Both the position numbers and the translations under genes were made by a program. DNA of 64,000 bases from a virus: the IMG/VR virus record IMGVR_UViG_3300050821_017216, positions 1-64,000 of that record. The stretch is one strand, 5' to 3'. The notes under the pieces are model-generated. The model did not search any database. It saw nothing but the letters and a program-made list of their open reading frames with translations, and was not told the DNA's origin. Of the stretch, positions 2,223 through 52,981 are shown piece after piece (position 1 is the stretch's first letter; the number at the start of each line of letters is the position of its first letter).

Positions 2223-2433
2223 GGGTAACGCTCGAGACGGTGCATCCAGCTGGCGGCGCTGGACAGTACAGCCCGCACCCGACGCCAGCGGGTCGTGTTC
2301 TCTTCACGCAGACCACCGCGGCGAAGGTGAGCAGCGCCGTGACGGCGACTTCGCAGACGAACCATCGGACCTTCATGTGTACCCATCGTGATATACACTG
2401 TAGCTCACAATCCGGGTCCGAGCAACCGGGTTG

Positions 2434-2811
2434 CTACTTCGCGGGCCCTGGTGTGCCGGGCGCCGCCCGGTTCTCGACGATCTGGACTCTCCGCTCGTCT
2501 TCCGGCAGGTGCAAGAGTCCATCCTGGACGTGCCCGGCGACCTCCACCTTCGCGCCGAGCAGCAGGTCCGCGGACAGGCGCGCGAGCGCCTCCGCCTCGT
2601 CTTGGCCGTAGACGTAGTAGGTGGCCGCCTCGCGCTTCGGCGCGTCCGCGGTCGCCGCCACCTCCACCGTCGTCACCTTGAACCGCACCGACACGGTGGG
2701 CTCATGCGGTTCGCCGTCGAACTCCGCGTCGATCAGCGGTGGGTACGACCGCTCGGCGGCGGGGTAGAGGTGAGCGGTCAGTCTGCGCTTGGCCCAGTCG
2801 ACGATCTTCAT
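2434..2811 (-). CDS. Hypothetical protein
   Basis: 125-aa ORF with GAGGG RBS, in the leftward block. Confidence 0.55.
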   Translation of the reverse strand: MKIVDWAKRRLTAHLYPAAERSYPPLIDAEFDGEPHEPTVSVRFKVTTVEVAATADAPKREAATYYVYGQDEAEALARLSADLLLGAKVEVAGHVQDGLLHLPEDERRVQIVENRAAPGTPGPAK

Positions 2812-2824
2812 TCGCGGTTCCCTC

Positions 2825-3160
2825 TCAGGCGCTCCCGCCGGGAGCGTTGAACGTTCGGTCCCAGCCGTCCCTGTACACCTTCGTAGCTACTTGAGGCGGC
2901 CCGCTGCGAGCGGGCGCGTACGCGCTCGTGATCTCGTGCGACCCATCGGGGCGACGACTCGTTGTGACGTACTCCTCGCCAGGCATCATCGGTGAACCGT
3001 CGACGACGGGGCGGATGACCGCCATCGTGGTCGAGTGGTCAGGGTGGTGTCGCGAGACCAGTGTCCGCCCGTCCGGCAACGAGCCGACGGGCGTGATGAC
3101 GTCCTTGTCGTCGCAGCGACCCATCGTCGACGCCTCGGGGTCGATCGGGTCGTTCTCCAT
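2825..3160 (-). CDS. Hypothetical protein
   Basis: 111-aa ORF, first gene of the leftward block. Confidence 0.6.
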   Translation of the reverse strand: MENDPIDPEASTMGRCDDKDVITPVGSLPDGRTLVSRHHPDHSTTMAVIRPVVDGSPMMPGEEYVTTSRRPDGSHEITSAYAPARSGPPQVATKVYRDGWDRTFNAPGGSA

Positions 3161-3169
3161 CGCCAGCCA

Positions 3170-3235
3170 ACGCTAGCTATGACGTAGCTCAGTGTCAATC
3201 ATTCCTTGCCACTACCCTACCTCGCGAGCTACGGT
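3170..3235. promoter_or_regulatory. Divergent promoter region with putative operator
   Basis: Leftward TTGACA (3198-3193)-N17-TAGCGT; rightward TTGCCA-N18-TACGGT; inverted GTAGCTC(3184)/GAGCTAC pair. Confidence 0.5.
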
Positions 3236-3242
3236 GTCAGTC

Positions 3243-3440
3243 ATGGCTCGCACGACAGAGAAACCGTCCACCCGCAAGAAGCAGAACCAGATCCGGATGG
3301 ACGAGGCCCTCAAGACGCGCATACGTAAGTACCAGAAGCAGGAGGGGGAGCGGATCGGGTTCGAGGTCAGCTTCTCCGCCGCCGTGCGCAAGCTCATCGA
3401 CATGGGGCTCGAGTCGGCCCGCATCGTGGTGTCGCAGTGA
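3243..3440 (+). CDS. Ribbon-helix-helix-like regulator
   Basis: 65 aa; QIRMDEALKTRI...VSFSAAVRKLIDMGL pattern; first gene after a divergent promoter. Confidence 0.55.
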   Translation: MARTTEKPSTRKKQNQIRMDEALKTRIRKYQKQEGERIGFEVSFSAAVRKLIDMGLESARIVVSQ

Positions 3441-3621
3441 AGGCGAACCCGCGCTGCGACCACGCCGACGGCGACCGCCGCTGCCCCAACTCGGCCGGCT
3501 ACCGCGTCAAGCAGCCGCCGTTCCAGCTGCGGCCCGGCCGGTTCTGTCTGCGCCACGCGCGCGCTCTGCGGGCCCGCCACGACTACGTCGTGCCGCTCGC
3601 CAAGCTCCACTCCGCTGACCG

Positions 3622-4965
3622 ATGAGCGGTCGCCTCGACCTCGTCCTGCAGCGCTACCCCGAGCACGAGGCTGGGATCCGCACGCTCGCCGCGCGCGACC
3701 CGTCCGGAAACCTCAAGTACCTCGACTGGGGCGCGAAGATGCTAGCGAGCGGCCAGGCGCTCGCGCCCGAGGTCGCGGACGTGCTCGACCTCTTCCACCA
3801 GTTCCGCGGGCGGTCGCTCGGCGGCGACGCGCGGCACTCCCGGCGGCAGGACCCGAGCCTGCGGGTCCACCCCGACGTCCACGCGTACCGCCCGCAGGAC
3901 CTCGCGAACCTGCGCACGCTCCTCACCAAGATCAAGCGAGCGCGCGACAAGAAGCGCCGCGCGCGCGAGCGGCTCTACAAGATCGAGGGCTCCGTCGAGG
4001 CGGAGGTCGTCCACGACTCGCCCGACCTCGTCGTCCGACACGTCAAGAACAAGCAGGCGAGCGCCCACTACGGCCTCGGCACCAAGTGGTGCATCGCGAT
4101 GCTCCGCGAGGGGTACTTCGACGACTACGAGGTGCAGAACGCGGCGTTCTTCTTCTTCGAGCGCAAGGCGCCATTGAAGGACGAGTTCGACAAGGTGTGC
4201 CTCGTCGTTCCGCGCGGCGCCGCGAGCGCGCGCGACTACATCATGGACCTGCAGGCCTTCACGGCGGTCGATTGCCGCGTGGACGTCTTCTCGCTCGCGC
4301 GGGTCTACGGGGCTGGTGTCTTCGACGTCCTCCGGCAGATCCACGCGTGCAGTGAGCGCTACCCAGGGTCGGCCGCGTTCCGAGTGAACGCCGGCACCGC
4401 CACCGCCGCGGAGTGCGAGGCCGTCCTCGCGACCGTCGTCGGTGGCAAGCTCGACCCGTACGAGACCGACCAGCTGATCGTGTCGATCTGCTGCAACGAC
4501 GCGGCGCCGTGGTCGCTCCTCGAGACCGTCCTGCAGCGCGCCGCCGCGCTACCCAAGGCGCCCCGCAAGCGCGGTCGGTTTCGCTACCACGCCAAGCGCG
4601 CCCGAGGGGGCCTCGGGATCGAGGTCGCCGTCGAGGCGGCCCTCACGATCCACCCGCAGGTACCGACCGCCGTCCGTGAGGTCCTCGTCAAGAAGCTCCG
4701 GCGCCGGCACGTCCGAGTGGAGGACATCCGCCGCGATGATCGCGGGCGGATCACCGTGACGTGGCGCGTGGCGGTCCGGACCGTCCGGCAGCGCCGCCAC
4801 CGATTCAACCGCTTCCGCACGGCGAAGCAGATGCGCGATCACGCCGGCGTACTCGCGCGCCGGGCTACTCGTTACCGCGAGTCGGCCAGGAAGCTGGAGA
4901 AGAGGGAGCGCGAGCGCGCTAAGAAGCGCCGCGAGCTAGCGAAGCGCCGGGGGGACGGGCGATGA
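3622..4965 (+). CDS. Large hypothetical phage protein with Arg-rich C-terminus
   Basis: 447-aa ORF, ATGA-coupled; contains YGLGTKWCI motif recalled from large-phage proteins. Confidence 0.7.
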   Translation: MSGRLDLVLQRYPEHEAGIRTLAARDPSGNLKYLDWGAKMLASGQALAPEVADVLDLFHQFRGRSLGGDARHSRRQDPSLRVHPDVHAYRPQDLANLRTLLTKIKRARDKKRRARERLYKIEGSVEAEVVHDSPDLVVRHVKNKQASAHYGLGTKWCIAMLREGYFDDYEVQNAAFFFFERKAPLKDEFDKVCLVVPRGAASARDYIMDLQAFTAVDCRVDVFSLARVYGAGVFDVLRQIHACSERYPGSAAFRVNAGTATAAECEAVLATVVGGKLDPYETDQLIVSICCNDAAPWSLLETVLQRAAALPKAPRKRGRFRYHAKRARGGLGIEVAVEAALTIHPQVPTAVREVLVKKLRRRHVRVEDIRRDDRGRITVTWRVAVRTVRQRRHRFNRFRTAKQMRDHAGVLARRATRYRESARKLEKRERERAKKRRELAKRRGDGR

Positions 4966-5276
4966 CGCTCCCGCTCTTCCCCCAGGCCAAGGCCGAACCC
5001 GCGCACCACTGCCACGCGCGCGGCTGCGCGACGGCGGTCCCGCCCGAGATGCTCATGTGCCGCGCCCACTGGCGCATGGTCCCGCGCGCCGTCCAGCGTG
5101 CCGTCTGGGCCGCGTACCGTCCCGGGCAGTGCGCGGACAAGCGGCCGTCCGAGGCGTGGCACCGCGCCGCCGACGCCGCTATCGGCTACGTCGCGCGTGC
5201 CGAGGGGCGCCCGCTGCGCCTGCAGGAGTCCATCGAGCTCGTCGCGTTCGGGTACCCACCATTCGTGGAGACGTGA
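4962..5276 (+). CDS. Conserved phage Cys/His protein
   Basis: HHCHARGC...LMCRAHW...VWAAYRPGQ; translationally coupled. Confidence 0.7.
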   Translation: MTLPLFPQAKAEPAHHCHARGCATAVPPEMLMCRAHWRMVPRAVQRAVWAAYRPGQCADKRPSEAWHRAADAAIGYVARAEGRPLRLQESIELVAFGYPPFVET

Positions 5277-5279
5277 AGA

Positions 5280-5525
5280 ATGAAGATCGAAGTCAGGAGG
5301 GTCGGAGACGCCGCGCACCTCGTCCTCGCCGGCGAGACCGCCGCGGAGTGGCGCGCGCTCCGTGAGTTCGTCGAGCTGATCAACGGGGGGCCGGTCGACC
5401 CGACCGACGTCGACGTCAACCCGGTCTTCGACCGATCTCTCCGCGTCGAGAGCGTCGGTTTCGACGACGACGGGATCGTCGAGTCCCTCACCGTCGAGGG
5501 TGACACATGGGGACCCAAACGATGA
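5280..5525 (+). CDS. Hypothetical protein
   Basis: 81-aa ORF in a coupled operon. Confidence 0.6.
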   Translation: MKIEVRRVGDAAHLVLAGETAAEWRALREFVELINGGPVDPTDVDVNPVFDRSLRVESVGFDDDGIVESLTVEGDTWGPKR

Positions 5526-5809
5526 CCAGCGACGAGGTGAGTGCGATCGTGAACGACGCCAACGCGTCGCTCATGCGGCGGCTGACGGACGGTGGCAAGC
5601 CCGTCGATAGTGTCGTCACCGTGGTGCTTTTCAAGGACGACGGTGAGGCCCACGTCCACATGGCGAGCAGCACGCGCCCCGAGTCCGACGCGGAGGCCGA
5701 CCGGCTAGAGGGGAGCGCGCTGATCGAGGCCGCCGACCTCATCGACACCTACGTCCACGATCACAACCTATGCGTCGACTGTAACGAGAGGAAAGGACCC
5801 GTCCAGTGA
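5522..5809 (+). CDS. Hypothetical protein
   Basis: ATGA overlap with the previous gene. Confidence 0.6.
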   Translation: MTSDEVSAIVNDANASLMRRLTDGGKPVDSVVTVVLFKDDGEAHVHMASSTRPESDAEADRLEGSALIEAADLIDTYVHDHNLCVDCNERKGPVQ

Positions 5810-6823: not shown

Positions 6824-7564
6824 TTAGTGGAGCTCGTCGGCGAGCGTGTTCACGTACCGCTCGCGGTCCGGCAGCTCGAGGAAGAGCTTCAACTCCAGGA
6901 GCTCCTCGGCCGCCGGCACGACCCAGTCGTGCACGCAGATGGCCTCGCCACGGTCGAGGTCGAAGACGCTGCGACCGCCCACCCTCGCGAGTCGATCGCG
7001 GGGTGCCTGGCGGCTCGTCAGGACGTAGCGGCGCCCGGTGTCGCCGCCGACGACGAGGAAGCTCTGCGTCCGGTCGAAGTCCTCGAGCTGCCTGGGCGTC
7101 AGGAACGCCCGCAGGACGCGCGTCGCGCGGACGTCGGCGCGCTCGAACTCAGGCACCGGGCAGCCTTGGGTCGGCTCCGCGACGGTGACGGCCGCTTTGG
7201 CCGCGTCCTTGACCGTGTCGACCACCTTCGAGATCGCCGCCTCCCCGTCGCCGTCGCTCGCGCGGTGGAGCTCCTCGATCCGACCGTTCTGGAAGACGAC
7301 CGCGGTCAGGAGCTTGCGCCCGCGCTTCATCGCCTTGGCGAGCAGCGACTCCACCTTGTCGATGGGCTTGTCGACGATCACCTTGCCGGCGTCAGGGGTG
7401 GTGTCGACGCCGTACTTCTTGCCGAGCGCCGTCATCGCCTCGCGCTCACTCGGCGACAGGCTCTCCCACTCCACCTCGGTCAACCTCCCCTGGGCCGTCA
7501 GCTTGACGTCCCCGTACATGCTCGGGAGAAAGAGCGGGATCCCGTTGAGGTCGATCAGGTTCAT
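6824..7564 (-). CDS. Hypothetical protein
   Basis: 246-aa ORF with GC3-biased codons. Confidence 0.7.
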   Translation of the reverse strand: MNLIDLNGIPLFLPSMYGDVKLTAQGRLTEVEWESLSPSEREAMTALGKKYGVDTTPDAGKVIVDKPIDKVESLLAKAMKRGRKLLTAVVFQNGRIEELHRASDGDGEAAISKVVDTVKDAAKAAVTVAEPTQGCPVPEFERADVRATRVLRAFLTPRQLEDFDRTQSFLVVGGDTGRRYVLTSRQAPRDRLARVGGRSVFDLDRGEAICVHDWVVPAAEELLELKLFLELPDRERYVNTLADELH

Positions 7565-14072: not shown

Positions 14073-15791
14073 TCAACCTCTCAGCTGCTCGGTCAACATG
14101 ATCTCGCTCCGACCCTCGACGATGCCGAGCGTGCGGAGCCTGGACAGCGCGTTGTTGAACCCACCGCCACCCGCCTCGTACGGCGGGTCACACTTGGCGG
14201 CGACGTCCTCCTTCGACATCGCGCGGTCGCTCTCCCGCAGCACGCGCATGATCTCGCGGTGCGCGCGCCCGAGCTCCGGGTGCCGCAGCCAGTCGTCGAA
14301 GAGCTGGTCGGGGTCCTCGGGCAGCGGGTCGAAGCCACCGAGCGCCGCGAGTCCGTCCCCGGTGATCTCGATCGGGTCGGTCCCGACGACGCGCATGGCC
14401 GTACGCAGCGCGCTCAGGTTGTTGTTGAAGCCGCCACCGTTCGAGGCGTATCGCGCCAGGATCGCGAGCTTGCTCTTGCTGCACGACCCGTAGCGCGCGA
14501 GCGCTAGCAGGATGCGGCGCTGGCCGCCAGGTAGCGAGTCGCCGGCGCCACGTGCTGACTTGATGGCATGCTGCGTAGAGCCGCGGGTAGGCCTTGGCGA
14601 TGCCGGCGGCGGTCGGAGATCCGCGCTGTTCTTCTTGCTCCACTGGAGACCGGGCGCGCTGACTTGCCGCTGACTCGCGTCGAACGCCTTGAGGACTCGC
14701 CCGGTATCCAGCGCCACGTTCGAGAGCTGCGCGCCGAGCAAGTCGAGCTTCGAGGCGACCATCGCGAGGTCCTCTACCTGTTTGTTCGTGAGGACCGGTT
14801 TCTCGATGATCTGCGGCAGCGCCGCCGGCTGCGCCTTGAGTTGCTTCTCGAGCTCCGCGATGCGACGCCGCAGCTCGCGCGGGTCTTCAACCCTCGCCCT
14901 CTCCACGACGTCGGCGAGCGACTTCGAGATCTCGACGATGTCGATGGGCGTGAGCGCCCTCACCTCCACCTTCCGAGCGCCCACCTTCGGGGTGGCCGAT
15001 GCGTCGAATGTCCGCTTCTCGCCGATCGTCGTCGTCAGCGACACGCGGAGCCACGCGGGGCTCCACACGCGCGCCTCACCGACGTGGAGCGACGGGAGTA
15101 GCGCGGCGATGTCCTCGTCGATACCCTTGTCGGCGATCCACGCGTCGATGGCCTTGCGCTCGTGGGTACCGGTCGTCTGGAAGACGAACAGGCACTCGGT
15201 CTGGTTGAGCGCCTTCTTGTTGACCTCCTGCGGGCGCTGGCTGATGAGCGACGCGCCGATGCCGAAGTTGCGACCGAGCTTGACGATCCGCTCGAACGCG
15301 CCGAGCATCCGCCTCTCCTCGCCCTGCGGGTTCTGGGGTATGAACTCCTGACTCTCCTCCACGAAGAGATGGATCGCGCTCGGCGCCGACTTCTTTCTGT
15401 AGAAGAGCCGCGTCGCGAACGCCTCGGCGAAGCGGGCCTTGTCCGTGTTGTGCTCGAACTGGCTGACATCGAGCACCGCCGCGATCTGCCGGTCGACGAT
15501 GAGGTCCGCGATCCTCGCGCCCATGAGCGGCTCGAGCGGCAGGTCGCCGTGCAGCCCCCCGAACACCGGCACATCGAGGCCGGACGGCTTGCCGTCCGCG
15601 CGCAGTCGCAGGCTCCACCACTTGCCCACCGGGTCGAGCGCGACGAACTGCGCGCCCGCCTCGCCGAAGAGCTCCGCGAGCTTGGTCGCCGCGTAGGTCT
15701 TCCCGCTGCCCGTCCGACCGATGAACGCGATCTTCTGCGTGACGGCGTCGAGCGGGAGCGCCAGGTCGCCGGACATCCTGAGCTTGGTCAT
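14073..15791 (-). CDS. HerA/DUF87-like ATPase with C-terminal winged-helix-like repeats
   Basis: Walker A GRTGSGKT, Walker B FVEESQE, KLGRNFGIG, SQRPQ; two GGGFNNxLSxLR repeats. Confidence 0.8.
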   Translation of the reverse strand: MTKLRMSGDLALPLDAVTQKIAFIGRTGSGKTYAATKLAELFGEAGAQFVALDPVGKWWSLRLRADGKPSGLDVPVFGGLHGDLPLEPLMGARIADLIVDRQIAAVLDVSQFEHNTDKARFAEAFATRLFYRKKSAPSAIHLFVEESQEFIPQNPQGEERRMLGAFERIVKLGRNFGIGASLISQRPQEVNKKALNQTECLFVFQTTGTHERKAIDAWIADKGIDEDIAALLPSLHVGEARVWSPAWLRVSLTTTIGEKRTFDASATPKVGARKVEVRALTPIDIVEISKSLADVVERARVEDPRELRRRIAELEKQLKAQPAALPQIIEKPVLTNKQVEDLAMVASKLDLLGAQLSNVALDTGRVLKAFDASQRQVSAPGLQWSKKNSADLRPPPASPRPTRGSTQHAIKSARGAGDSLPGGQRRILLALARYGSCSKSKLAILARYASNGGGFNNNLSALRTAMRVVGTDPIEITGDGLAALGGFDPLPEDPDQLFDDWLRHPELGRAHREIMRVLRESDRAMSKEDVAAKCDPPYEAGGGGFNNALSRLRTLGIVEGRSEIMLTEQLRG

Positions 15792-16492
15792 CGGCTCACC
15801 CCACCGGCCGGGCAGCCGCCGCCGAGGTGGATCGATCGCGGGTAGCCGGTGCGGCGCTCGACGTACCCCCCGCACCTCCCGCACACCGCGCGCGTGACGC
15901 CGACCGACTCCACCGCCGGCTTCGGCTGCGCACTCGCCCGTCGGCGCGTCCGTACCGTCGGCCTGCGCACGCGGACGTGGCGCGGCGATCGGCTGACGAC
16001 GCGCCCGTACTCCACGCCGGCTCGCCACGGTACCAGGCGGCCGAGCTGCTGGGCCTCGGCGAACAGCTCCAGCACCTCCTCGCGCAGGCTCACGGCCCCC
16101 TCCAGCGGTTGCTCTTGAGGTGCGACTCGATGTCCGGGTGCTCGCGCACGGCCAGGATCTTGGCGCACGCCGGCGAGCAGGTCCGAGCCTTGGGCGACTG
16201 GTACTTCCGCTGGGGGACCGGCTCGCCGCAGACCGCGCAGTCGCAGATCTTGCCCATCACGGATCCCTCGGTTCGCGCGCATACCACGATTTATCCGGTA
16301 CGCCGCAGTGCGAGTTGAACCGGGCCGCCGCCCGGTTGAGTAAAACGATCGCTTGCGCCAACTCCGACACCGCCTCGTCCGAGTGGGAGGACTCCATCAC
16401 GCGAGCCGACGGAATGGCACACCGGGACACTCGAGCCGCTTCCTGCAGCTCACGCGCTACGTCGCCCAACGTCCTGCTGCGCGCGTCGCCGG

Positions 16493-29887: not shown

Positions 29888-30136
29888 TCACGTCTCCGTC
29901 CCGGGCCGCACATTGGTGGCGTCGGTGACCTCGATGCACACGACGTTACTCGCGACGGGACGCACGCGCATCGACCCGTTCTTGACTCGGATCGAGAGCG
30001 TCCCCTCGCTCTCCTGCCGACCTGCATGGGAGCACAACACCTCAGCTCCGTTCGGAAGCACGAACAGGACGCGAGCGTCGTCACCGAGGTCGGTCTCCGT
30101 ACGCTTCACGATGTCATCTAGGTAGACCTTCTTCAT
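29888..30136 (-). CDS. Hypothetical protein; second copy at window start
   Basis: 82 aa, AAGGGAG RBS; 5' part identical to 1-76. Confidence 0.75.
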   Translation of the reverse strand: MKKVYLDDIVKRTETDLGDDARVLFVLPNGAEVLCSHAGRQESEGTLSIRVKNGSMRVRPVASNVVCIEVTDATNVRPGTET

Positions 30137-43532: not shown

Positions 43533-45264
43533 CCGCGCGGGTCGCCGGGCTCCCGGTGGGGGCTCTCGTGAGGCGCGACGCGATCCACCCCGCGATGCGC
43601 GAGGCGCTCGGCGCCTTCGAGGTGCTCCGCCGGTTCGGCTTCGAGTCCGACGACATCTTCTTCCACCAGAACGCGGAGGAGGTCCCCGGGCGCGAGCCGA
43701 AGGGGATGATGTTCGTGGTGCTCAAGACGCAGGGCAAGGACTTCTCGATCCGCGTGGGCGTCGTCGACCTGCCCTACGAGGTGTGGATCGAGGAGTGGAC
43801 AGCCGTCGCGACCGCCGCCGCCGAGAAGCGGATCGTCGGGGTCGATCGGATCGTAGATGAGAGCTTGGCGCGCAGCGAGATGGTGGGGCTGCTTCTGGCG
43901 ATCCATGGAAAGGGGATCCGTGTCCCCGTCGCCCAGCTGGGTCTCTCTTGAGCCAGCTCTCGTTCTTCGGCGCACCGCCACCCAAGCCACCGGCGGATCT
44001 ACCGCCTGCGGCAGTCGCGATCCTGGCCGCCGCCAGGTCGCTGGCTTTCACGACGCGGGTCACTCGCGGCTGCTGGGGCGTGGCTGTCGGCGTCAAGCGC
44101 CGGTGGACGCTGCGTTGGGACCGCTGCTGCGCGCTCGGGGCCTACCTCGTCGCCGTCGAGGCGGTCGCCGGACCGAGCGAGCAGTCGCCGCGCGCGACCG
44201 TCACCCGACTGCTCGGGTTGACCCACGATCAGGTCACCGCGTTCACGCGCGGGTTCGACGGGTTGCCGGGCGACGGTTCGGAGTGGTACCGGTACGGCGC
44301 GCGGGTCGCGGAGGAGGTCATTACCCCATGAGCGATGATGAGAGGTCCGCTATCGAGACGGTCGTGCGAGCGCCAGACCCGTATGTGACCGTGAGCCTGC
44401 CGGGCGTGCTGCTGGTCAGGGAGACCGAGATCGGGGCGAAGGTGCTGCGGTCGGCGCTCAACGGGCTGTTCGAGCGGCTCGGTGACCGAAAGGTGTCGAT
44501 CGCTTTGACGACGCTCGATCCGCCAACGTACGCCGAGGGTGCCAAGATCGACGACGGTGTCACGCTGCTGCGATCGGCGTTCGGTGCTGACGGCAACGAA
44601 CCGATGGAGGAGGCCGCGCGGCGCGTCGTGCGCGCCTACGTCAACCGGGACAGCCGAATACCTACCGCGCGAGACGCCGTCATCGAGGCGGCCATGATCG
44701 TCTGCCGCCCGGGACCCAGCTGGAACGTCGAGGAGGCGTGCGCGGTCCTGCGTCGCACGGGTGTTCCGTGACGGGGGTCGAGATCATCGCCGTAGCGTGC
44801 GGCGCGAGCGTCGTCGGTGTCGCGGTCATCGTGAAGTCGACGCTCGACTTCGCCCGGTGGACCCTCACCGAGGACCGCCTGAGCGACCCGGTCGAGCGTA
44901 GACGCGCGGAACTCAAGCGCAGGTGCGTGGAACTCGAGCGCCGACGCAAGGAGCTCGTGACCAGGAGCGCGCACGAGGTGGCTGGGGCAGATACCTGGAA
45001 CAAACTCAACGAGTACATCAACCAAGTCGACCGGCAGATCGACGAGTTGGACAAGGCGGCCCAGGACACACCATGACTCCCGCTCGCGCCATGCACCAAG
45101 ATCTATGGTCGGCCCTGCGCAGGGTGCGGGACGGTGAACTCCCAGGGAGTCCTGGGTTGCGGGACCTGCTCATCGAGCGCGGGCTCATCGAGTGGGTCCC
45201 CGGTGAGTCTGGACTCCGCCTAACGGCCAGTGGTGTTCGCGTGATACAGAAAGAGGGCCGGTGA
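43529..45264 (+). CDS. Run of five coupled hypothetical genes (43529-43951, 43948-44331, 44328-44771, 44768-45076, 45073-45264)
   Basis: Consecutive 4-bp start/stop overlaps. Confidence 0.55.
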
Positions 45265-45327
45265 CCGCGAGTGGACCGAAGTATCCTCTACGCCGTCCGC
45301 GACCGTACGTCGACCGGAGGAACCCAC

Positions 45328-45510
45328 ATGCTCAAGACCGCAATCGCCACGATTCTCGCCATCGTCGCTGTCGCGAACTGCCAACCGCCGCGCGCGACTT
45401 ACATCGAGTGCGGAAGCGGCCTGCGCTGTCCGATCAACACCGTGTGCGGTGGCGGTCCGTACGCGATCTGCGGGCCGGGCGCGTGCTGTCCGGTGAGTGG
45501 AAGTCCGTGA
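45328..45510 (+). CDS. Small secreted Cys-rich peptide or lipoprotein
   Basis: GGAGG RBS; MLKTAIATILAIVAVANC; 7 Cys in 60 aa. Confidence 0.6.
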   Translation: MLKTAIATILAIVAVANCQPPRATYIECGSGLRCPINTVCGGGPYAICGPGACCPVSGSP

Positions 45511-45644
45511 CGGCTGGCGACGATCACTCCATGGCGAGACCGGTCCCTCGATCCCTCAAGGCGAGGTCGTCGAACGAGCCTCGCGGATGCTCACTCGCGA
45601 GCTGCGAGTCGCGGCGAACGGTCGTGTAAGTCCTGGTTCATCGA

Positions 45645-45995
45645 GTCGAGGTTGAAGAACGACCTCGCTGGACTCGTATCGTTTACCGTCCGCTTGCCAG
45701 GTCGAGGTCGTCGATCGACCTCGTCGTACCGACAGCCATCGCTCTTCTTCCAGAAGGCGAACCGCTACTAGTCGAGGCCGCCGATCGGTCTCGCTGTCGT
45801 ATCGACTGCCCCAGAATTGCAGCTCCATCTCAGGTCGAGATCGACGATCGACCTCGCTGTCATTCCGACTCGTGCCGCAGCGGCAATCTACCTCTCTGGC
45901 GTGGAGTGTCGAGGTCGTCGATCAACCTCGCTGGCGTTACAACGGCGCAGGTGCTGCACGTCAAGGTCGTCGGTCGACCTCGCTGTCCCCGCGCC
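45645..45995 (-). CRISPR. Degenerate trailer block of type-A repeats (about 6)
   Basis: Degenerate GTCGAGGTCGTCGATCGACCTCGCTGTCGTTCCGAC copies at 45645, 45701, 45771, 45834, 45908, 45960. Confidence 0.8.
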
Positions 45996-46015
45996 TACCT
46001 GCCGGCCCCGCTTGT

Positions 46016-46811
46016 GTCGAAGTCGTCGATCGACTCCGCTGTCGTCGCGACACACCGCCGACGTACGCGATACGTCGGAGTCCTCGATCGGCTCCGCTGT
46101 CGTCGCGACGGCACGGCGGGCGCTGTTGCGCGCCCTGGTGGGAGTCGGAGTCTTCGATCGACTCCGCTGCCGTCGCGACCGCGCGGTGGTCGTCGAGCGC
46201 AGCTTACGGTGGGACGTCGCGACATGGTTGCGGTGTCTACGCAACTGACTCCGGCGGAGACGTCGGAGTCTTCGATCGACTCCGCTGCCGTCGCGACCCT
46301 CTGGACGGTCTGCATACCCGTAAGGGGACCCGTCACGACCCAATCGCGGCGCCGCCTAGCGCGCCACTGGCTGCGGTCGGAGTCTTCGATCGACTCCGCT
46401 ACCGTCGCGACGCGCCACGTGGTGCCGGGCCACTGGCACGACATCCCGTCGGAGTCTTCGATCGACCCCGCTGTCGTCATAACCTCTAGCTTCTTCGAGT
46501 GCGCGTTCGTCAGCCGCGTGTCGGAGTCTTCGATCGACCCCGCTGCCGTCGCGACGGGCCGGCAAAATCCACGGCGTCGGAGTCTTCGATCGACTCCGCT
46601 GCCGTCGCGACCGATGCCCAATCGGCCTCGCTGGGGAAGCCGTAGTTCGCGTCGGAGTCTTCGATCGACCCCGCTGCCGTCGCGACTTCCGAACGCTAGG
46701 TTGATGCCAACGCCGACTACAGCGAGTCGGAGTCTTCGATCGACTCCGCTGTCGATGTCGACTGCGCTGAGCTGCATCGGAGTCTTCGATCGACTCCGCT
46801 ACCGTCGTGAC
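46016..46811 (-). CRISPR. Type-B repeat block: 11 repeats plus two 8-bp remnants
   Basis: GTCGGAGTCTTCGATCGACTCCGCTGCCGTCGCGAC at 46016, 46074, 46144, 46262, 46376, 46448, 46520, 46576, 46651, 46726, 46776; remnants at 46216 and 46332. Confidence 0.95.
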
Positions 46812-46836
46812 AAGGCGCATCGCCATGGAACCCCGA

Positions 46837-47898
46837 GTCGAGGTCGTCGATCGACCTCGCAGTCGTTCCGACTTACGCGGCGATCCCGCGAAGGTTCCAA
46901 TCGTAGTCGTCGAGGTCGTCGATCGACCTCGCAGTCGTTCCGACCGCGGCCGCGCGCGCAGTATGAGCGGGGCTCGCCGTGTCGAGGTCGTCGATCGACC
47001 TCGCTGTCGTTCCGACTCGAGGTCACAGTCGAGGAGTTCGAGGGAAGAACTCGTCGAGGTCGTCGATCGACCTCGCTGTCGTTCCGACCCGCGTCTGGCA
47101 CCGCCAGCTCGGCGTTGCACTCCACCGGTCGAGGTCGTCGATCGACCTCGCTGTCGTTCCGACATGCGCATCGTCCGGTTGCCCTTGAGCAACGTGTACG
47201 TGTCGAGGTTGTCGATCGACCTCGCTGTCGTTCCGACAGTACGCCTGCGGCGGCGGAGGAGGCGGGGCGAACTGGTCGAGGTCGTCGATCGACCTCGCTG
47301 TCGTTCCGACCTGCGTCGGCAGCGCCAGCACGTCGACGTCGTCGTGGTCGAGGTCGTCGATCGACCTCGCTGTCGTTCCGACGTCGCGCCGAATGCGCTT
47401 CGCAACGGAGCCCTTGTATCGAGGTCGTCGATCGACCTCGCTGTCGTTCCGACCCTGGAAGAGTTTTCGCGCAAGTTTCGCAGGAAGGGTGTCGAGGTCG
47501 TCGATCGACCTCGCTGTCGTTCCGACGGTGCTCTTGAGCGGGCCCAGTTTCTGCTCGACCTGCTGTCGAGGTCGTCGATCGACCTCGCTGTCGTTCCGAC
47601 CTTGCGAAGTCGCCAACGCTTTTGCGCTCGCACACGGCGTCGAGGTCGTCGATCGACCTCGCTGTCGTTCCGACAGCGCGTGGACGCGAAGATGAGCGAG
47701 CGCGAGCGCCAGTCGAGGTCGTCGATCGACCTCGCTGTCGTTCCGACGATGTGAGCGAGTGAGGGGAGACGGGAACTGACGGTCCGGGGTCGAGGTCGTC
47801 GATCGACCTCGCTGTCGTTCCGACGTCGCCGCCGTGACAACGGGGGCCTCCGTCCCGCTCTTGTCGAGGTCGTCGATCGACCTCGCTGTCGTTCCGAC
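46837..47898 (-). CRISPR. Type-A repeat block: 15 near-identical 36-bp repeats, 14 spacers of 35-41 bp
   Basis: GTCGAGGTCGTCGATCGACCTCGCTGTCGTTCCGAC at 46837, 46909, 46981, 47053, 47128, 47202, 47275, 47347, 47418, 47491, 47565, 47639, 47712, 47789, 47863; orientation inferred from the cas gene and degeneracy polarity. Confidence 0.98.
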
Positions 47899-47939
47899 AG
47901 GTAACGTTATGTTGTCAATGATCTTGTAGGCTTACCGAC
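47899..47939 (-). promoter_or_regulatory. Short AT-richer CRISPR leader
   Basis: 41 bp between the cas stop codon and the first, undegenerate repeat. Confidence 0.6.
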
Positions 47940-50012
47940 CTATTTTCGAGCGCTCTCGATCCTGGCCTTCTTCGCCGCGCCCATCCGTTTCGCGCGCGCC
48001 CACTTCTCGCTCTTTTTCTTGTTTGCTTCCGCATCTTTCTCTGGATCGCGAGCGCCTGCCAGGATCTCGGCGTCGCCGGGCCGCTCGCACCACCGCTGGA
48101 GCAGTAGCGGGGCCGCACCCTCCCGGTCTTGGTCCCACTCGTGACCACACGTGCAGCGCAGGCGCACCCGAAGGGCTGGCTCCCGGTCGGCCACGAGCCC
48201 ACACGCCGGGCACGTGCTGGTCGTGCGCGCGGCGTCTACGGCCACGATCTGGGTGCCGCGACGCGGAGCAGTCGACAGCAGGCAGTCGCGCAGTTCGCTC
48301 ACGGCGGCGAGCTGGCGGTTGCTGCGCGCGACCTCGTTCTCGGCGTCGTCCGCCCCGGTCGCTTTCCGGGTGGCGATTACCCGCAGGTCGAACTGCTCGA
48401 TCACGATCGTGCTGTACGCGCGCGTGAGCTCTGCGGCGAAGCACCGGTACTTGTCGCGCCGGCGACGCAGCCCGCGCGTGCGACACGCTTCCTCGGTGGC
48501 CCATCGCGCCCAGTCGCCCGTCGCCCACGCCCGGACGGCCTGGAGTGCGGCGTCCTCGGCGGCGTCTCGTTCCGGCCGCTCACTCTCCCAGCGACGGAGC
48601 AGGCGGACCATCTTGGCCGGTCGGCGCCACGCGTGCATCGCGCGCGCGGCGTCCCGCATCCACTCCGGCGCGACCGGAGAGACGCCGATCCACTGCTTGA
48701 CCTGCACCTTGCAGATGTCGAACGCGCGGTCGCGCTCGCTGCGCACGTCCGCGTGCATGCGGAGCGCGTGGACGTCGGCGACGGTCAGCCGGAGCTCGCC
48801 GCTTTTCCCGTTCGAGTCGTGCCAAGCTGCGACGCGGATCGCCCCGTCCATCAACCGCCAGCCCACGTCGACGGCGACGGTCGGGCGGTCCGGGACCGGA
48901 ACGGTCGCGGTGTCGGGCGTGTTGACCGTCAGGCAGAGGCTCCACTCGCTATGCGGCCCGCGCATGCGCCGGTGGACGGCAGCCCAGGTGATGAACGCAC
49001 CGGCCGGCAGCGGCCGGTGGTAGTCGAGCCGGAATGTCGCCCAGATCGGCCGGCGATGCTCGTCGGTGTCCACGCACAACCGGAGCTCGCCGTGCCGCGC
49101 CGCACGGTCACGCACCCAGCGCGCCGGCGTGCCGTCGGGTCGCGTCGCCGGTGCAGGCTGGTCCGGCTCGCCTTTACGACCGGGCAGGGTCCCCGGTGGC
49201 CGGCGGCCGCGACCGCTCCCCACGATGCTGTCTTCTCGACGCGGGGAGCGAGCGGTGAGCGTCGCGCTCGCGAGCCACTCTTCGGGCCACGGGGGGGCAC
49301 CGATCCGCAGCCTGGAGTCCTTCTGCGCGAGCGCCCCCTCGACCGTCAGCGGTCGGGTCGACTGGATCTGCACGCCCACGGTCCCCGAGCCGTCCCACGG
49401 GGGCGGCAAGTCCGGGTCGTGCGGCGTGACGCCGTCCCTCTCGTAGAGCGGCGCCTCGCAGCTCGCGCGGTGCGCGCGGTCTACCAGAAGGTACGTCCCC
49501 CACCACACGCCCGAGTGGTGGCGGGCGTTCTTGACGATCTCGTTGGCCATCGCGTCGATGGTGTCGATCGCGTCGCGCAGCGCGCGCGCCTCCGCCGAGG
49601 CGTGCGGGCACGGGTTCTGCTCGCTCTTGAGCTTGCGACACTCCTTGCACTGCGACGCGTAGCGCGCCCGCACCGCGTAGAGTTGCTCGCGCGCCTGCTT
49701 TCCCGCGGCGCGCGCGGCGGCGATCTGCAGGCGCGCGGACGCCGTCTCGCTGCGCGACCGGGTGACCTTGCGCCCGACCCGGATCTCGGCGGCGAGCCAC
49801 TCGCACGCCGCCGCGATCCCGGCGACCTTGGCCTCGGCCGCCTCCATCTCCGCGCTGCAGGTCGACCGCGCCAGCCGCTCGGCCCACCGTCGACCGCGCT
49901 CGATGAGCGTTAGGTTTTTGCGGTACGCGTGCGCGCGCCACATCTGATCGTGGACGACGTCCGCGCCCTCGCGGGGCGCGGTGATTCCGTTGCGAAACAC
50001 AAGTGTCGTCAT
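47940..50012 (-). CDS. cas12m: Type V CRISPR effector, Cas12m (V-U1)-like
   Basis: QMWRAHAYRKNL, WWGTY, WDGSGTVGVQIQ, HRPLP, PTVAVDVGWR, IVIEQ, TTSTCPACG, CTCGHEWDQD collinear with recalled Cas12m motifs; abuts the array. Confidence 0.85.
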   Translation of the reverse strand: MTTLVFRNGITAPREGADVVHDQMWRAHAYRKNLTLIERGRRWAERLARSTCSAEMEAAEAKVAGIAAACEWLAAEIRVGRKVTRSRSETASARLQIAAARAAGKQAREQLYAVRARYASQCKECRKLKSEQNPCPHASAEARALRDAIDTIDAMANEIVKNARHHSGVWWGTYLLVDRAHRASCEAPLYERDGVTPHDPDLPPPWDGSGTVGVQIQSTRPLTVEGALAQKDSRLRIGAPPWPEEWLASATLTARSPRREDSIVGSGRGRRPPGTLPGRKGEPDQPAPATRPDGTPARWVRDRAARHGELRLCVDTDEHRRPIWATFRLDYHRPLPAGAFITWAAVHRRMRGPHSEWSLCLTVNTPDTATVPVPDRPTVAVDVGWRLMDGAIRVAAWHDSNGKSGELRLTVADVHALRMHADVRSERDRAFDICKVQVKQWIGVSPVAPEWMRDAARAMHAWRRPAKMVRLLRRWESERPERDAAEDAALQAVRAWATGDWARWATEEACRTRGLRRRRDKYRCFAAELTRAYSTIVIEQFDLRVIATRKATGADDAENEVARSNRQLAAVSELRDCLLSTAPRRGTQIVAVDAARTTSTCPACGLVADREPALRVRLRCTCGHEWDQDREGAAPLLLQRWCERPGDAEILAGARDPEKDAEANKKKSEKWARAKRMGAAKKARIESARK

Positions 50013-50236
50013 GGCTCTATCTTCCTTTCAGAGTTTTTGTGGGTCGTGTGGCCAGCCCGCATCGGCTGCACGTTGGTGGCTGCGACGAACGGCGTCCGTG
50101 TTGTCTGGGTTTGACTCCCACGCGTCCGCGCACCCCATCGAGCAGAAGTCGCGACCGTGCGCTCCGATCCTCGCTGTACCGACCTCTCTCATGTCGATCG
50201 GTAGATGGCATTCGTGGCAGACGGTCAGGTGAGCGG

Positions 50237-50884
50237 TCATCGGCCGGTACCTCGTACCGACTCATGGGTCGGTGACAGGATCGCGGCCACGTCGGGATCG
50301 ATCCCCAGATCTTCGAGACCGAACAGGTGCCGGATCCCGACGCCGTCGACGCTGCTGGTTCGGCTGGCCGGCGGTCGGCGGTCGATCACCGTCACGATCC
50401 CACGCACGTCGAAGCCGTCGGAGCGCAGCGCCTGGACCGCGAGTGCGGAGGACTGGCCGGTCGACACGACGTCCTCGAGCAGCACCACCCACTCGCCGAA
50501 CCGGCACCACGCGTGCTCGACGAGGTTCTTCGTGCCGTGGTCCTTGGGGACCTTCCTGACGTAGATCACGTTGTAGTTGCCGCCGCCGGCGTGTGCGGCC
50601 ACGATGCTCGCGAGGTGGCAGCCGCCGAGCGCCACGCCGGCCACGGCTTCCGCGTGCCCGAATTGCTGCACCTCGCGATGGATGAGGGCGGCGAGCGGCC
50701 GGTGCATGTCGCGGTGGAAGTAGGTGCGCTTGGCGTCGACGTAGAGCCGCGACTTGCCGCCCGAGGCCAGGTCGAACTCGCGCCCGGGCTGAGCGACCTT
50801 GACCGAGTAGGCCTTGATGTGCGCGAGGACTGCCTGCCTGTCGATGGTGGCGTCGGTGTCGGTCATCTCTCCGATGTCGGTCAT
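50237..50884 (-). CDS. pyrE: Orotate phosphoribosyltransferase
   Basis: FDLASGGKSRLYVDAK, VRKVPKDHG, VLLEDVVSTGQS. Confidence 0.85.
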   Translation of the reverse strand: MTDIGEMTDTDATIDRQAVLAHIKAYSVKVAQPGREFDLASGGKSRLYVDAKRTYFHRDMHRPLAALIHREVQQFGHAEAVAGVALGGCHLASIVAAHAGGGNYNVIYVRKVPKDHGTKNLVEHAWCRFGEWVVLLEDVVSTGQSSALAVQALRSDGFDVRGIVTVIDRRPPASRTSSVDGVGIRHLFGLEDLGIDPDVAAILSPTHESVRGTGR

Positions 50885-51394
50885 TTCTCTGATCCTTTCC
50901 TTTGGCGTGTCGGGTCGGTGGGTGACGGTGACTCCACGCTGGGACCCTCCTCCAGGAGGATCTCCATCGGTCGGGTCTCCTCCTCCGGGTCGGCGCGCGC
51001 GTACTCCGTCGGCGGATCCCGGCACTCCGCGCGCAGGATGCGCACGCGGTCGGAGAGCGCGCAGAGCGATCGCGCGTCCTCTCGCGCGCGGCGCGCGCGA
51101 CGCTCGCGCAGCGAGAAGCGGATCTCACTGACGACCAGCAGGACGACGACCGTGCCGAAGGCGCCCGCGATGATGCCGGCCAAGAGACCACGGTGGAACA
51201 TGTCGGCGGGGATCATCGCTCGGCCAGCTCCAGACCAGCCAGGAGCTCGTCGACGGTCGGCGGGTCGTCCGGCTCGGTGTACGCGCTGACCTCGAGCCCG
51301 CGCGCCCGCCACACCTCGGTGACCCCGTCGACGTCGTTCACGTGGATGCGCAGCCGGACCATCCCGTGTTTGCCCGCGTCGTACCCGAATAGGA

Positions 51395-52423: not shown

Positions 52424-52981
52424 TCACGACTCCTCCCCGCGCGATCGGCGCCACTCTGCCTCCGCGAGGATCGCGCGGAGCTCCTTGACGGCGTACGCGC
52501 CCAGGTGCCTCCTCACGACAGCCTCCGCCCTCGCCATGTCTAAGTCCTCGCTCAGAACGAGGTACCGGACGTCCCCGTCGTCCTTCGGACGACCGGCGAT
52601 CATCTTCATCGCGACGAGGAACTCCGGCGTGACGATCGGCGGCGTGATGCCGTCGACCACCACGGCCGCCGCGAGCGCCCCCGCGTACAGATCCTTCCAC
52701 TCGTCGTCGCGCACGATGACGTCGAGCGGCACGTCGCCCTCGCGGGTCCGCACTCCGCCGAAGACGAGCGGCTCGCCGGAGTAGCCAAGCCGGTCAGTGG
52801 CGACGACGTCGAGGTCGCCCGTCAGTCGCGGCGAACCCCACACCTGCATCGCCAGTCCGCCGGCAACGGCGATCTCGCTGTCCGTGGCGCGACGCTCGCG
52901 CGCCCGCGCCGACACCTTCTCGGCCGCAGCGACCAGCTCGTCGTAGGACGGGAGACGTTTCCCTCTGCGCGGTTTCGTCAC
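52424..52981 (-). CDS. Minimal nucleotidyltransferase-like protein (second paralog)
   Basis: AVAGGLAMQVWGSPRLTGDLDVV...AMKMIAGRPKDDGD. Confidence 0.8.
   Translation of the reverse strand: MTKPRRGKRLPSYDELVAAAEKVSARARERRATDSEIAVAGGLAMQVWGSPRLTGDLDVVATDRLGYSGEPLVFGGVRTREGDVPLDVIVRDDEWKDLYAGALAAAVVVDGITPPIVTPEFLVAMKMIAGRPKDDGDVRYLVLSEDLDMARAEAVVRRHLGAYAVKELRAILAEAEWRRSRGEES

Follow-up and report, generated by a model that had tools for sequence, protein, structure and literature searches.

Does a Cas12m effector that keeps an intact Asp-Glu-Asp (D-E-D) RuvC triad cut its DNA targets, or does it hold them without cutting? The question is raised by a gene for a 690-amino-acid (aa) protein, cas12m, at 47940-50012 on the minus strand of a 64,000-nucleotide (nt) stretch of DNA (the window), positions 1 to 64,000 of the IMG/VR virus record IMGVR_UViG_3300050821_017216. 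A first interpretation made from the letters of the window (the sequence-only reading) had described the protein as a phage-borne Cas12m-like effector, had treated its D-E-D triad as a departure from the Cas12m norm, and had suggested a nuclease-active intermediate between TnpB and Cas12m. Our profile searches and structural model identify the protein as a type V-M Cas12m (formerly V-U1, c2c4). It is followed by a co-oriented CRISPR array, and we consider it probable that the two form a functional V-M module of a ~120-kb soil virus, in which binding guided by CRISPR RNA (crRNA) blocks rival DNA without cutting it.

Family assignment of the effector

The 690-codon open reading frame shows the coding pattern typical of the 67%-GC contig (GC content of 0.88 at third versus 0.57 at second codon positions), and its N-terminus is common to homologues. 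A profile built from 129 relatives matches five Cas12m sequences from the PDB, including 23vw, Cas12m2, GoCas12m and UnCas12m4a, over their full length (E-values 2.4e-154 to 7.3e-67), whereas the same profile reaches only the C-terminal RuvC/TNB core of TnpB, Cas12f and Cas-phi (7.5e-11 or weaker). With phmmer, the best match among solved structures is again a Cas12m, 23vw_A (6.4e-40, covering query residues 296-637 only), followed by GoCas12m and UnCas12m4a. Solved Cas12f proteins align at the TNB/RuvC end only (1.6e-07 or weaker), with target-normalised template modelling (TM) scores of at most 0.53.

The AlphaFold2 model computed from the family alignment is confident (predicted local distance difference test score, pLDDT, 93.9; predicted TM score 0.89), as is its RuvC fold. 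Foldseek places it closest to 8hhl_A (Cas12m2, target-normalised TM 0.82) and 8pm4_A (GoCas12m, 0.80), the next TnpB or Cas12f structures reaching at most 0.65. Together with a Pfam PF07282 match and a CCCC zinc finger, the model displays the bilobed arrangement of a WED domain, a coiled-coil helical REC lobe, a split RuvC domain and an inserted TNB zinc finger. The proposed Cas12m-like identity is thus borne out by profile, PADLOC, phmmer and structure matches, and neither the hidden Markov model comparisons nor the fold groups the protein with TnpB or another subtype. At 690 aa it exceeds the usual Cas12m size of ~540-615 aa, a description of the family rather than a strict criterion, because of a Cys/His motif and an insert in the WED region.

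Annotation resources give mixed names to this protein. The best PADLOC model is Cas12u1 (former name V-U1; 5.3e-74), and one PADLOC model labelled Cas12f also matches over the full length (1.7e-71), so that automatic typing tools may label this Cas12m wrongly. The sole NCBIfam entry is guided_TnpB (NF040570), at 34.6 bits against a cut-off of 100 and over residues 516-633 only; the only Pfam match is PF07282, the Cas12f1-like TNB domain, at residues 573-633. TnpB of IS200/IS605 elements and Cas12f share the RuvC and zinc-ribbon (TNB) core with the present protein, but similarity does not extend over the full length, and the protein described here has a CRISPR array as the source of its guide and a much larger REC lobe. 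It also differs in size from TnpB, which is ~400 aa and recognised by its curated model. No transposon context was seen around cas12m, although transposon ends and omega-RNA were not searched for.

The D-E-D triad and the enlarged clade

The three acidic residues D382, E539 and D629 and the motifs quoted for them lie where the sequence-only reading had put them, and they do form the triad: in HMMER alignments they fall in the RuvC catalytic columns, which hold D/E/D in 23vw_A and UnCas12m4a and H/D/D in GoCas12m, setting the present protein apart from the HDD type (clade 2). The His-Asp-Asp site attributed to the Mycolicibacterium protein is correct for MmCas12m2, which binds a single Mg2+ (PMC10442227), and, by our alignment, for GoCas12m. 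D-E-D is, by contrast, no exception among Cas12m proteins. The Wu 2022 classification, as relayed by Omura 2023 (PMC10442227), recognises four clades, with HEK/HQK, HDD, DED/NED and DED/DND/NED triads, so that D-E-D is already published for clades 3 and 4, and 107 of the 129 nearest cluster representatives carry it, the rest being scattered NED, NDD, NAD, GPD, HED and HDD. D-E-D thus prevails among the relatives of this protein and is no evidence of nuclease activity.

Biochemical work on relatives likewise contradicts the idea that D-E-D points to a nuclease. Eight assayed Cas12m orthologues (four D-E-D, two H-D-D and two N-D-D) all bound double-stranded DNA (dsDNA) in a manner dependent on the protospacer-adjacent motif (PAM) with zero cleavage (Bigelyte 2024, PMC11013384). 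For purified D-E-D MsCas12m, neither target nor collateral cleavage was seen, and pre-crRNA processing persisted in the D274A mutant (PMC11013384). In Cas12m2, cutting did not return when HDD was changed to DED (Omura 2023, PMC10442227), and GoCas12m defends against phages and plasmids through binding (PMC11013384). The scattered triads among the relatives follow the "gradual inactivation" pattern remarked on by Altae-Tran 2023 (PMC10691335). The link between D-E-D and missing cleavage in Cas12m is already known, and the present protein is one more test case. We identified MsCas12m as a 536-aa protein of the Allomeiothermus (Meiothermus) silvanus plasmid pMESIL02, with Asp274 in AVAVDLGWR; it is 33% identical to the query over 347 residues (E 2e-50), and its D/E/D aligns to D382/E539/D629. 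The nearest solved relative, 23vw_A, is also D-E-D and was deposited as 'DNA-binding protein'.

In a FastTree phylogeny (LG + gamma) of the 129 relatives and four named anchors, 18 proteins of ~680-770 aa form one monophyletic clade (support 1.0; hereafter the ~690-aa clade), which is nested at a depth of 18 nodes in a radiation whose members are 585-675 aa long and mostly D-E-D. Most distant from it are the HDD anchor, from a Mycobacterium intracellulare plasmid, and the NDD anchor, from a Pelobacter propionicus plasmid. Because the clade is monophyletic, deeply nested and enlarged, the tree describes the ~690-aa form as derived and expanded by insertions, and the suggested intermediate between TnpB and Cas12m does not survive this placement. 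D-E-D is kept in 17 of the 18 clade members, the exception being P0023 (NDD). Members of the clade were seen on virus records and metagenomic contigs of 73-124 kb.

Two features set the clade apart from other Cas12m proteins, and both had been picked out by the sequence-only reading. The CKEC...CPH motif in the N-terminal lobe (C122-x2-C125...C135-x-H137) is present in 22 of the 129 relatives, with all four ligands kept in each of the 16 tabulated clade members. In the AlphaFold2 model it occupies a short helix and loop between long REC helices, where it would presumably bind a metal ion. The Pro/Arg-rich insert of about 50 aa is equally real and clade-specific: the WED insert measures 41-119 aa in the ~690-aa clade, compared with 7 aa as the median of other relatives, and it is the sole low-confidence region of the model (pLDDT below 50 at residues 264-268). 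The Lys-rich tail, listed earlier as a further extra, is present but family-wide, with a median of 54 aa across relatives and a helix at residues 657-689 in the model. D629 is invariant across the 129 sequences, and the residues that follow it differ between groups, the ~690-aa clade having x-x-G-A-A-P where the family consensus is x-N-A-A-x-N, as usual for RuvC-III. In the present protein, residues 629-635 (48108-48128, minus strand) read D629 followed by R-E-G-A-A-P.

The array, its spacers and the mode of action

Directly 3' of cas12m and on the same strand lies a CRISPR array of 32 repeats of 36 nt (45645-47898), in which blocks of two repeat types, A and B, and a decayed distal part can be told apart (Table 1). 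The 15 repeats of block A are all perfect or differ at one position. The far end of the array is decayed, and the newest spacers therefore presumably adjoin cas12m. The arrangement recurs among relatives: a co-oriented array begins 34-424 nt past the gene in 16 of 29 related loci, and 7 of the 13 loci lacking one have less than 300 nt of sequence after the gene.

The A repeat is predicted to form two hairpins, one of 4 bp on the 5' side and one of 8 bp on the 3' side, the latter followed by AC (-17.2 kcal/mol, z = -3.2). Nine of ten full-length repeats from different loci share a 6-8 bp stem running from position 14 to -3 although the stem sequences differ; eight of these nine end in AC and one in AG, and only 6% of shuffled repeats reach a 6-bp stem. 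This covariation across loci supports a conserved crRNA handle fold, as far as can be judged by sequence comparison. In the Cas12m2 crRNA, too, the handle ends in a hairpin followed by AC, with C(-1) and a G:A pair closing the stem (PMC10442227).

The sequence-only reading had also reported the lack of cas1, cas2 and a trans-activating CRISPR RNA (tracrRNA). Our searches agree: Cas1 and Cas2 were not found in the whole 119,899-bp record, the 64 kb of the window hold no anti-repeat copy outside the array at up to 3 mismatches in 24 nt, and Rfam gave zero matches over 45000-50500. Their absence is nothing peculiar, however, being the norm for V-M systems (PMC10691335, PMC11013384), and Cas12m works without a tracrRNA (PMC11013384). 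An adjoining array with neither adaptation genes nor other cas genes is the V-M layout.

The array can be described as an A-B-A mosaic. The effector of a related virus is 93% identical, and its array holds 22 repeats of B type only (L004:12118-13674) with 21 spacers, all different from those of the present virus. A ~94%-identical variant of the locus, found in a peat run of another study, is joined directly to a B repeat, whereas an identical locus occurs in one soil run. Since the relative has B repeats only and the peat variant is joined to B, the A block beside cas12m looks like a newcomer in this genome. The stems of A and B repeats differ by compensatory changes, and one effector type, at 93% identity, appears to serve both. 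The complete spacer turnover between effectors this similar is better explained by an arms race against other mobile elements than by fixed regulatory guides.

Searches for the targets of the spacers gave no protospacer. The spacers match neither their own genome nor the relative's 22-kb locus, and comparisons with the relative's 60 kb, and of the relative's 21 spacers with this genome, were also negative. Against GenBank phages and PLSDB plasmids, only matches of ~85% identity with E-values of at least 0.008 appeared. Among 401 genomes of the order of the Polyangiaceae metagenome-assembled genome (MAG) described below, only GC-rich partial matches centred on the low-complexity spacer 8 were found; this sample includes four unpublished genomes, which bear on this negative and on no other statement. 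The exact 24-nt 5' parts of spacers 1, 2, 4 and 5 have no match in IMG/VR, and 123 spacer units from relatives' arrays match neither this genome nor any of the fetched loci. One candidate pairing, of G002 spacer 6 with L036, has 8 mismatches in 37 nt, including seed positions, and was set aside as chance.

Taking family membership, the gene with its co-oriented array, the handle fold, the spacer turnover and the absent Cas1/Cas2 from the data above, and the steps of transcription, crRNA processing, binding and spacer supply from characterised relatives, we propose the following mode of action. The gene and the downstream array would be transcribed in the same direction, and the pre-crRNA would be trimmed by Cas12m itself without a tracrRNA, giving a crRNA with a repeat-derived 5' handle (the 3'-proximal 8-bp hairpin, then AC) and a spacer of ~36 nt. 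The complex would recognise PAM-flanked dsDNA, form an R-loop and stay bound, blocking transcription or replication of the uncut target, which would most likely belong to a virus or plasmid that competes for the same host cell. The D-E-D pocket would probably hold the displaced strand via Mg2+ instead of hydrolysing it. New spacers may come from host adaptation machinery acting in trans, or from recombination with the arrays of related viruses. Signs that the module is active in nature are the spacer turnover relative to the 93%-identical relative and the retention of the triad in the clade.

Several observations weigh against a binding-only defence module. The characterised relatives from which we infer the behaviour of the clade are only ~33% identical, and in the C-terminal half only. 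Because no protospacer turned up for any spacer, the defensive role, like the targets and the PAM, is an inference. Virion genes were not recognised, so the element counts as a virus on account of its IMG/VR and CheckV labels together with a module for replication and nucleotide metabolism. Strong conservation of three acidic residues (17 of 18 clade members, 107 of 129 relatives) would also be expected of a working nuclease, the RuvC fold is confidently predicted, and Omura 2023 (PMC10442227) leaves two-metal catalysis open for clades 3 and 4, with speculation in its favour. In addition, the clade-specific Cys/His motif and WED insert, absent from any tested Cas12m, could change how the protein behaves. 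These last points would suit a nuclease-active Cas12m that uses its intact site to destroy targets, by cutting or nicking their DNA or by cutting DNA that is single-stranded; if true, it would be a natural nuclease-active Cas12m used in virus-virus conflicts. We consider this unlikely. All four assayed D-E-D orthologues lack dsDNA cleavage, including the purified MsCas12m with its lack of target or collateral cutting, and restoring D-E-D in Cas12m2 brought no cutting back. Within the same radiation the triad has also disappeared several times (NED, NDD, NAD, GPD, and NDD in P0023 inside the clade) while the gene was retained, which argues that catalysis is not its core function, and the residues after D629 depart from the RuvC-III x-N-A-A-x-N. 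As an overall verdict, a cutting enzyme is an outcome to which we give low odds, and it seems doubtful that the ~690-aa subclade retains target cutting or nicking that the tested Cas12m proteins lack.

A binding-only mechanism (PMC11013384, PMC10442227) is equally suited to a viral gene-regulation tool, a natural form of CRISPR interference (CRISPRi) in which the crRNA-guided binder silences host genes or the virus's own, and the lack of a viral or plasmid protospacer and of adaptation genes in the virus would be in keeping with this. We nevertheless regard regulation as improbable: the spacers match neither the virus that carries them nor its relative, the 401 genomes of the probable host order offer nothing beyond GC-rich chance matches, and two viruses whose effectors are 93% identical have no spacer in common, as in an arms race and unlike a set of fixed regulatory guides. 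Still further from the data is a transposon-derived nuclease of TnpB or Cas12f type that merely happens to lie near an array, or a decaying relic, either of which we hold to be very improbable. That guided_TnpB and the Cas12f1-like TNB domain are the only names returned by NCBIfam and Pfam, that a PADLOC Cas12f model scores near Cas12u1, and that the distal array is decayed could be read in this way. Yet the TnpB model stays far below its cut-off and covers residues 516-633 only, solved TnpB and Cas12f proteins score at least 56 orders of magnitude below the weakest Cas12m match (7.5e-11 against 7.3e-67), in the C-terminal RuvC/TNB part only, and their target-normalised TM scores do not exceed 0.65. 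The conserved order of gene then array, the intact reading frame and the 15 near-perfect A repeats also speak against this reading.

Table 1 Features of the cas12m locus, in coordinates of the window
Feature	Position	Strand	Remarks
Ribosome-binding site	50021..50026	-	AGGAAG, 8 nt before the ATG; read from the sequence
cas12m gene	47940..50012	-	690 aa, protein P0001, type V-M effector by reading frame, profile, PADLOC and fold
Cys/His motif, codons 122-137	49602..49649	-	C-x2-C-x9-C-x-H; putative zinc knuckle, helical REC lobe, tip
WED-region insert, codons ~250-297	49122..49265	-	Pro/Arg/Gly-rich, mostly coil; clade-specific, variable length
RuvC-I, codon D382	48867..48869	-	in AVDVGW starting at 380
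RuvC-II, codon E539	48396..48398	-	in IVIEQ starting at 536
TNB zinc finger, codons 601-622	48147..48212	-	CCCC: C601, C604, C620, C622
RuvC-III, codon D629	48126..48128	-	in WDQD starting at 626
C-terminal helix, codons 641-690	47943..48092	-	Lys/Arg-rich, family-wide
Gap from stop codon to first repeat	47899..47939	-	41 nt; holds a TTGACA hexamer; no full promoter match found
Array block A	46837..47898	-	15 near-identical 36-nt repeats, 14 spacers of 35-41 nt; cas-proximal
Array block B	46016..46811	-	~11 repeats of the second type, irregular spacers of 14-82 nt
Decayed A-like repeats	45645..45995	-	distal (old) end

The carrying element and related systems

The source record is classed as a virus by IMG/VR, in agreement with the phage-borne origin first proposed. 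It is 119,899 bp long and lacks end repeats, and CheckV estimates its completeness at 100. The first half holds a module for replication and nucleotide metabolism as is typical for large viruses, encoding helicases, a primase/helicase-like protein, an exonuclease, Sak4, a polymerase exonuclease subunit, thymidylate synthase, a DNA methyltransferase, a nucleoside deoxyribosyltransferase, and ParB-like and PAPS-reductase-like proteins. A HerA/FtsK-like ATPase at 14073-16028 has a weak match to a terminase PHROG. In the second half (64001-119899), PHROG gave no virion-related match for the 20 proteins scanned (214-1205 aa) and Pfam none for the ten largest, the ESM Atlas was uninformative on a 439-aa capsid candidate, and a megablast of 24 kb against phages returned nothing. 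On balance the element is probably a virus, the remaining possibility being a large plasmid-like element.

In IMG/VR, the relative with the 93%-identical protein appears as two contigs of 60.8 kb that are identical to each other and have inverted terminal repeats; around the locus they are syntenic with the present genome and ~90% identical to it in DNA. Contigs of 73-124 kb hold homologues at 50-77% identity. The genes that related loci have in common with this genome are scattered, and no neighbour of cas12m is conserved. In the public runs no RNA dataset was listed with the locus, and the contigs show DNA occurrence only. The nearest genome-database match is a 5.8-kb contig binned in a Polyangiaceae MAG, which suggests a myxobacterial host.

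Among characterised proteins, the D-E-D Cas12m of clades 3 and 4 (MsCas12m, 23vw_A) are alike in sequence, profile and fold, in the triad, the CCCC TNB finger and the Lys-rich tail, and in having a co-oriented 36-nt-repeat array after the gene; other cas genes are lacking in both, and a tracrRNA is not recognised here. They differ in length (536-577 aa versus 690 aa), with ~33% identity confined to the C-terminal half, and in being encoded on a chromosome or plasmid, whereas the present protein is virus-borne, with the added REC Cys/His motif, the 41-119-aa WED insert and the altered motif after the third Asp. MmCas12m2 (8HHL, 8HHM, 8HIO) and GoCas12m (8PM4) are the best structural matches (TM 0.80-0.82) and share the WED-REC-RuvC-TNB order, but they have an H-D-D site with a single Mg2+ and ~21-22% identity, and belong to the most distant branch of the tree, that of the M. 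intracellulare HDD anchor.

Virus-borne D-E-D Cas12m is itself already known. The myxophage MV-1 encodes MvCas12m, of 610 aa, with D305/E463/D555, 8 spacers and a Polyangiales host (bioRxiv 10.64898/2026.09.14.751636); as here, the array adjoins the gene, cas1/cas2/cas4 and a recognised tracrRNA are lacking, no targets have been identified, and the probable host group is Polyangiales. Compared by its published description, MV-1 differs in being predicted to be temperate, with an integrase, and in its smaller effector and array. A second case, unrecognised so far, is Virus Rctr197k (KX853510.1), a 197-kb Caudoviricetes record that encodes a 623-aa D-E-D homologue, 31% identical, under the label 'similar to transposase'; an annotated CRISPR region comes right after it (locus L022, coordinates 2242-4110 and 4144-5658), and cas1/cas2/cas4 are likewise lacking. 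Just upstream of that Cas12m lies a homologue (38% identity) of a 246-aa protein of our window (6824-7564). Against these proteins of 610 and 623 aa, what is new here is modest: an enlarged 690-aa subclade with two extra elements, the REC Cys/His motif and the WED insert, and a long array of 32 repeats of two types.

The present Cas12m opens no new question. Compact DNA-binding tools that can be programmed for base editing, CRISPRi and epigenome editing are being developed from Cas12m proteins, and the present protein contributes a divergent orthologue that has a good structural model, a defined 36-nt repeat and two unexplored add-ons. It also adds to growing evidence that viruses carry V-M systems without adaptation genes.

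Some minor observations concern the surroundings of the gene. A small Cys-rich open reading frame at 50017-50265 (minus strand; 82 aa, with C-x2-C and C-x3-C) ends just before the start of cas12m; it has no counterpart in related loci, and the stretch is not conserved in the 90%-identical relative. The genes upstream of cas12m, at 50237-51025 and 52424-52981 (both minus strand), include a phosphoribosyltransferase-like protein (PHROG 32468, 8.8e-22), and there is also a protein with a weak, sub-threshold match to AbiEii/nucleotidyltransferase. Elsewhere in the window, contig positions 1-50 are repeated exactly at 30061-30110.

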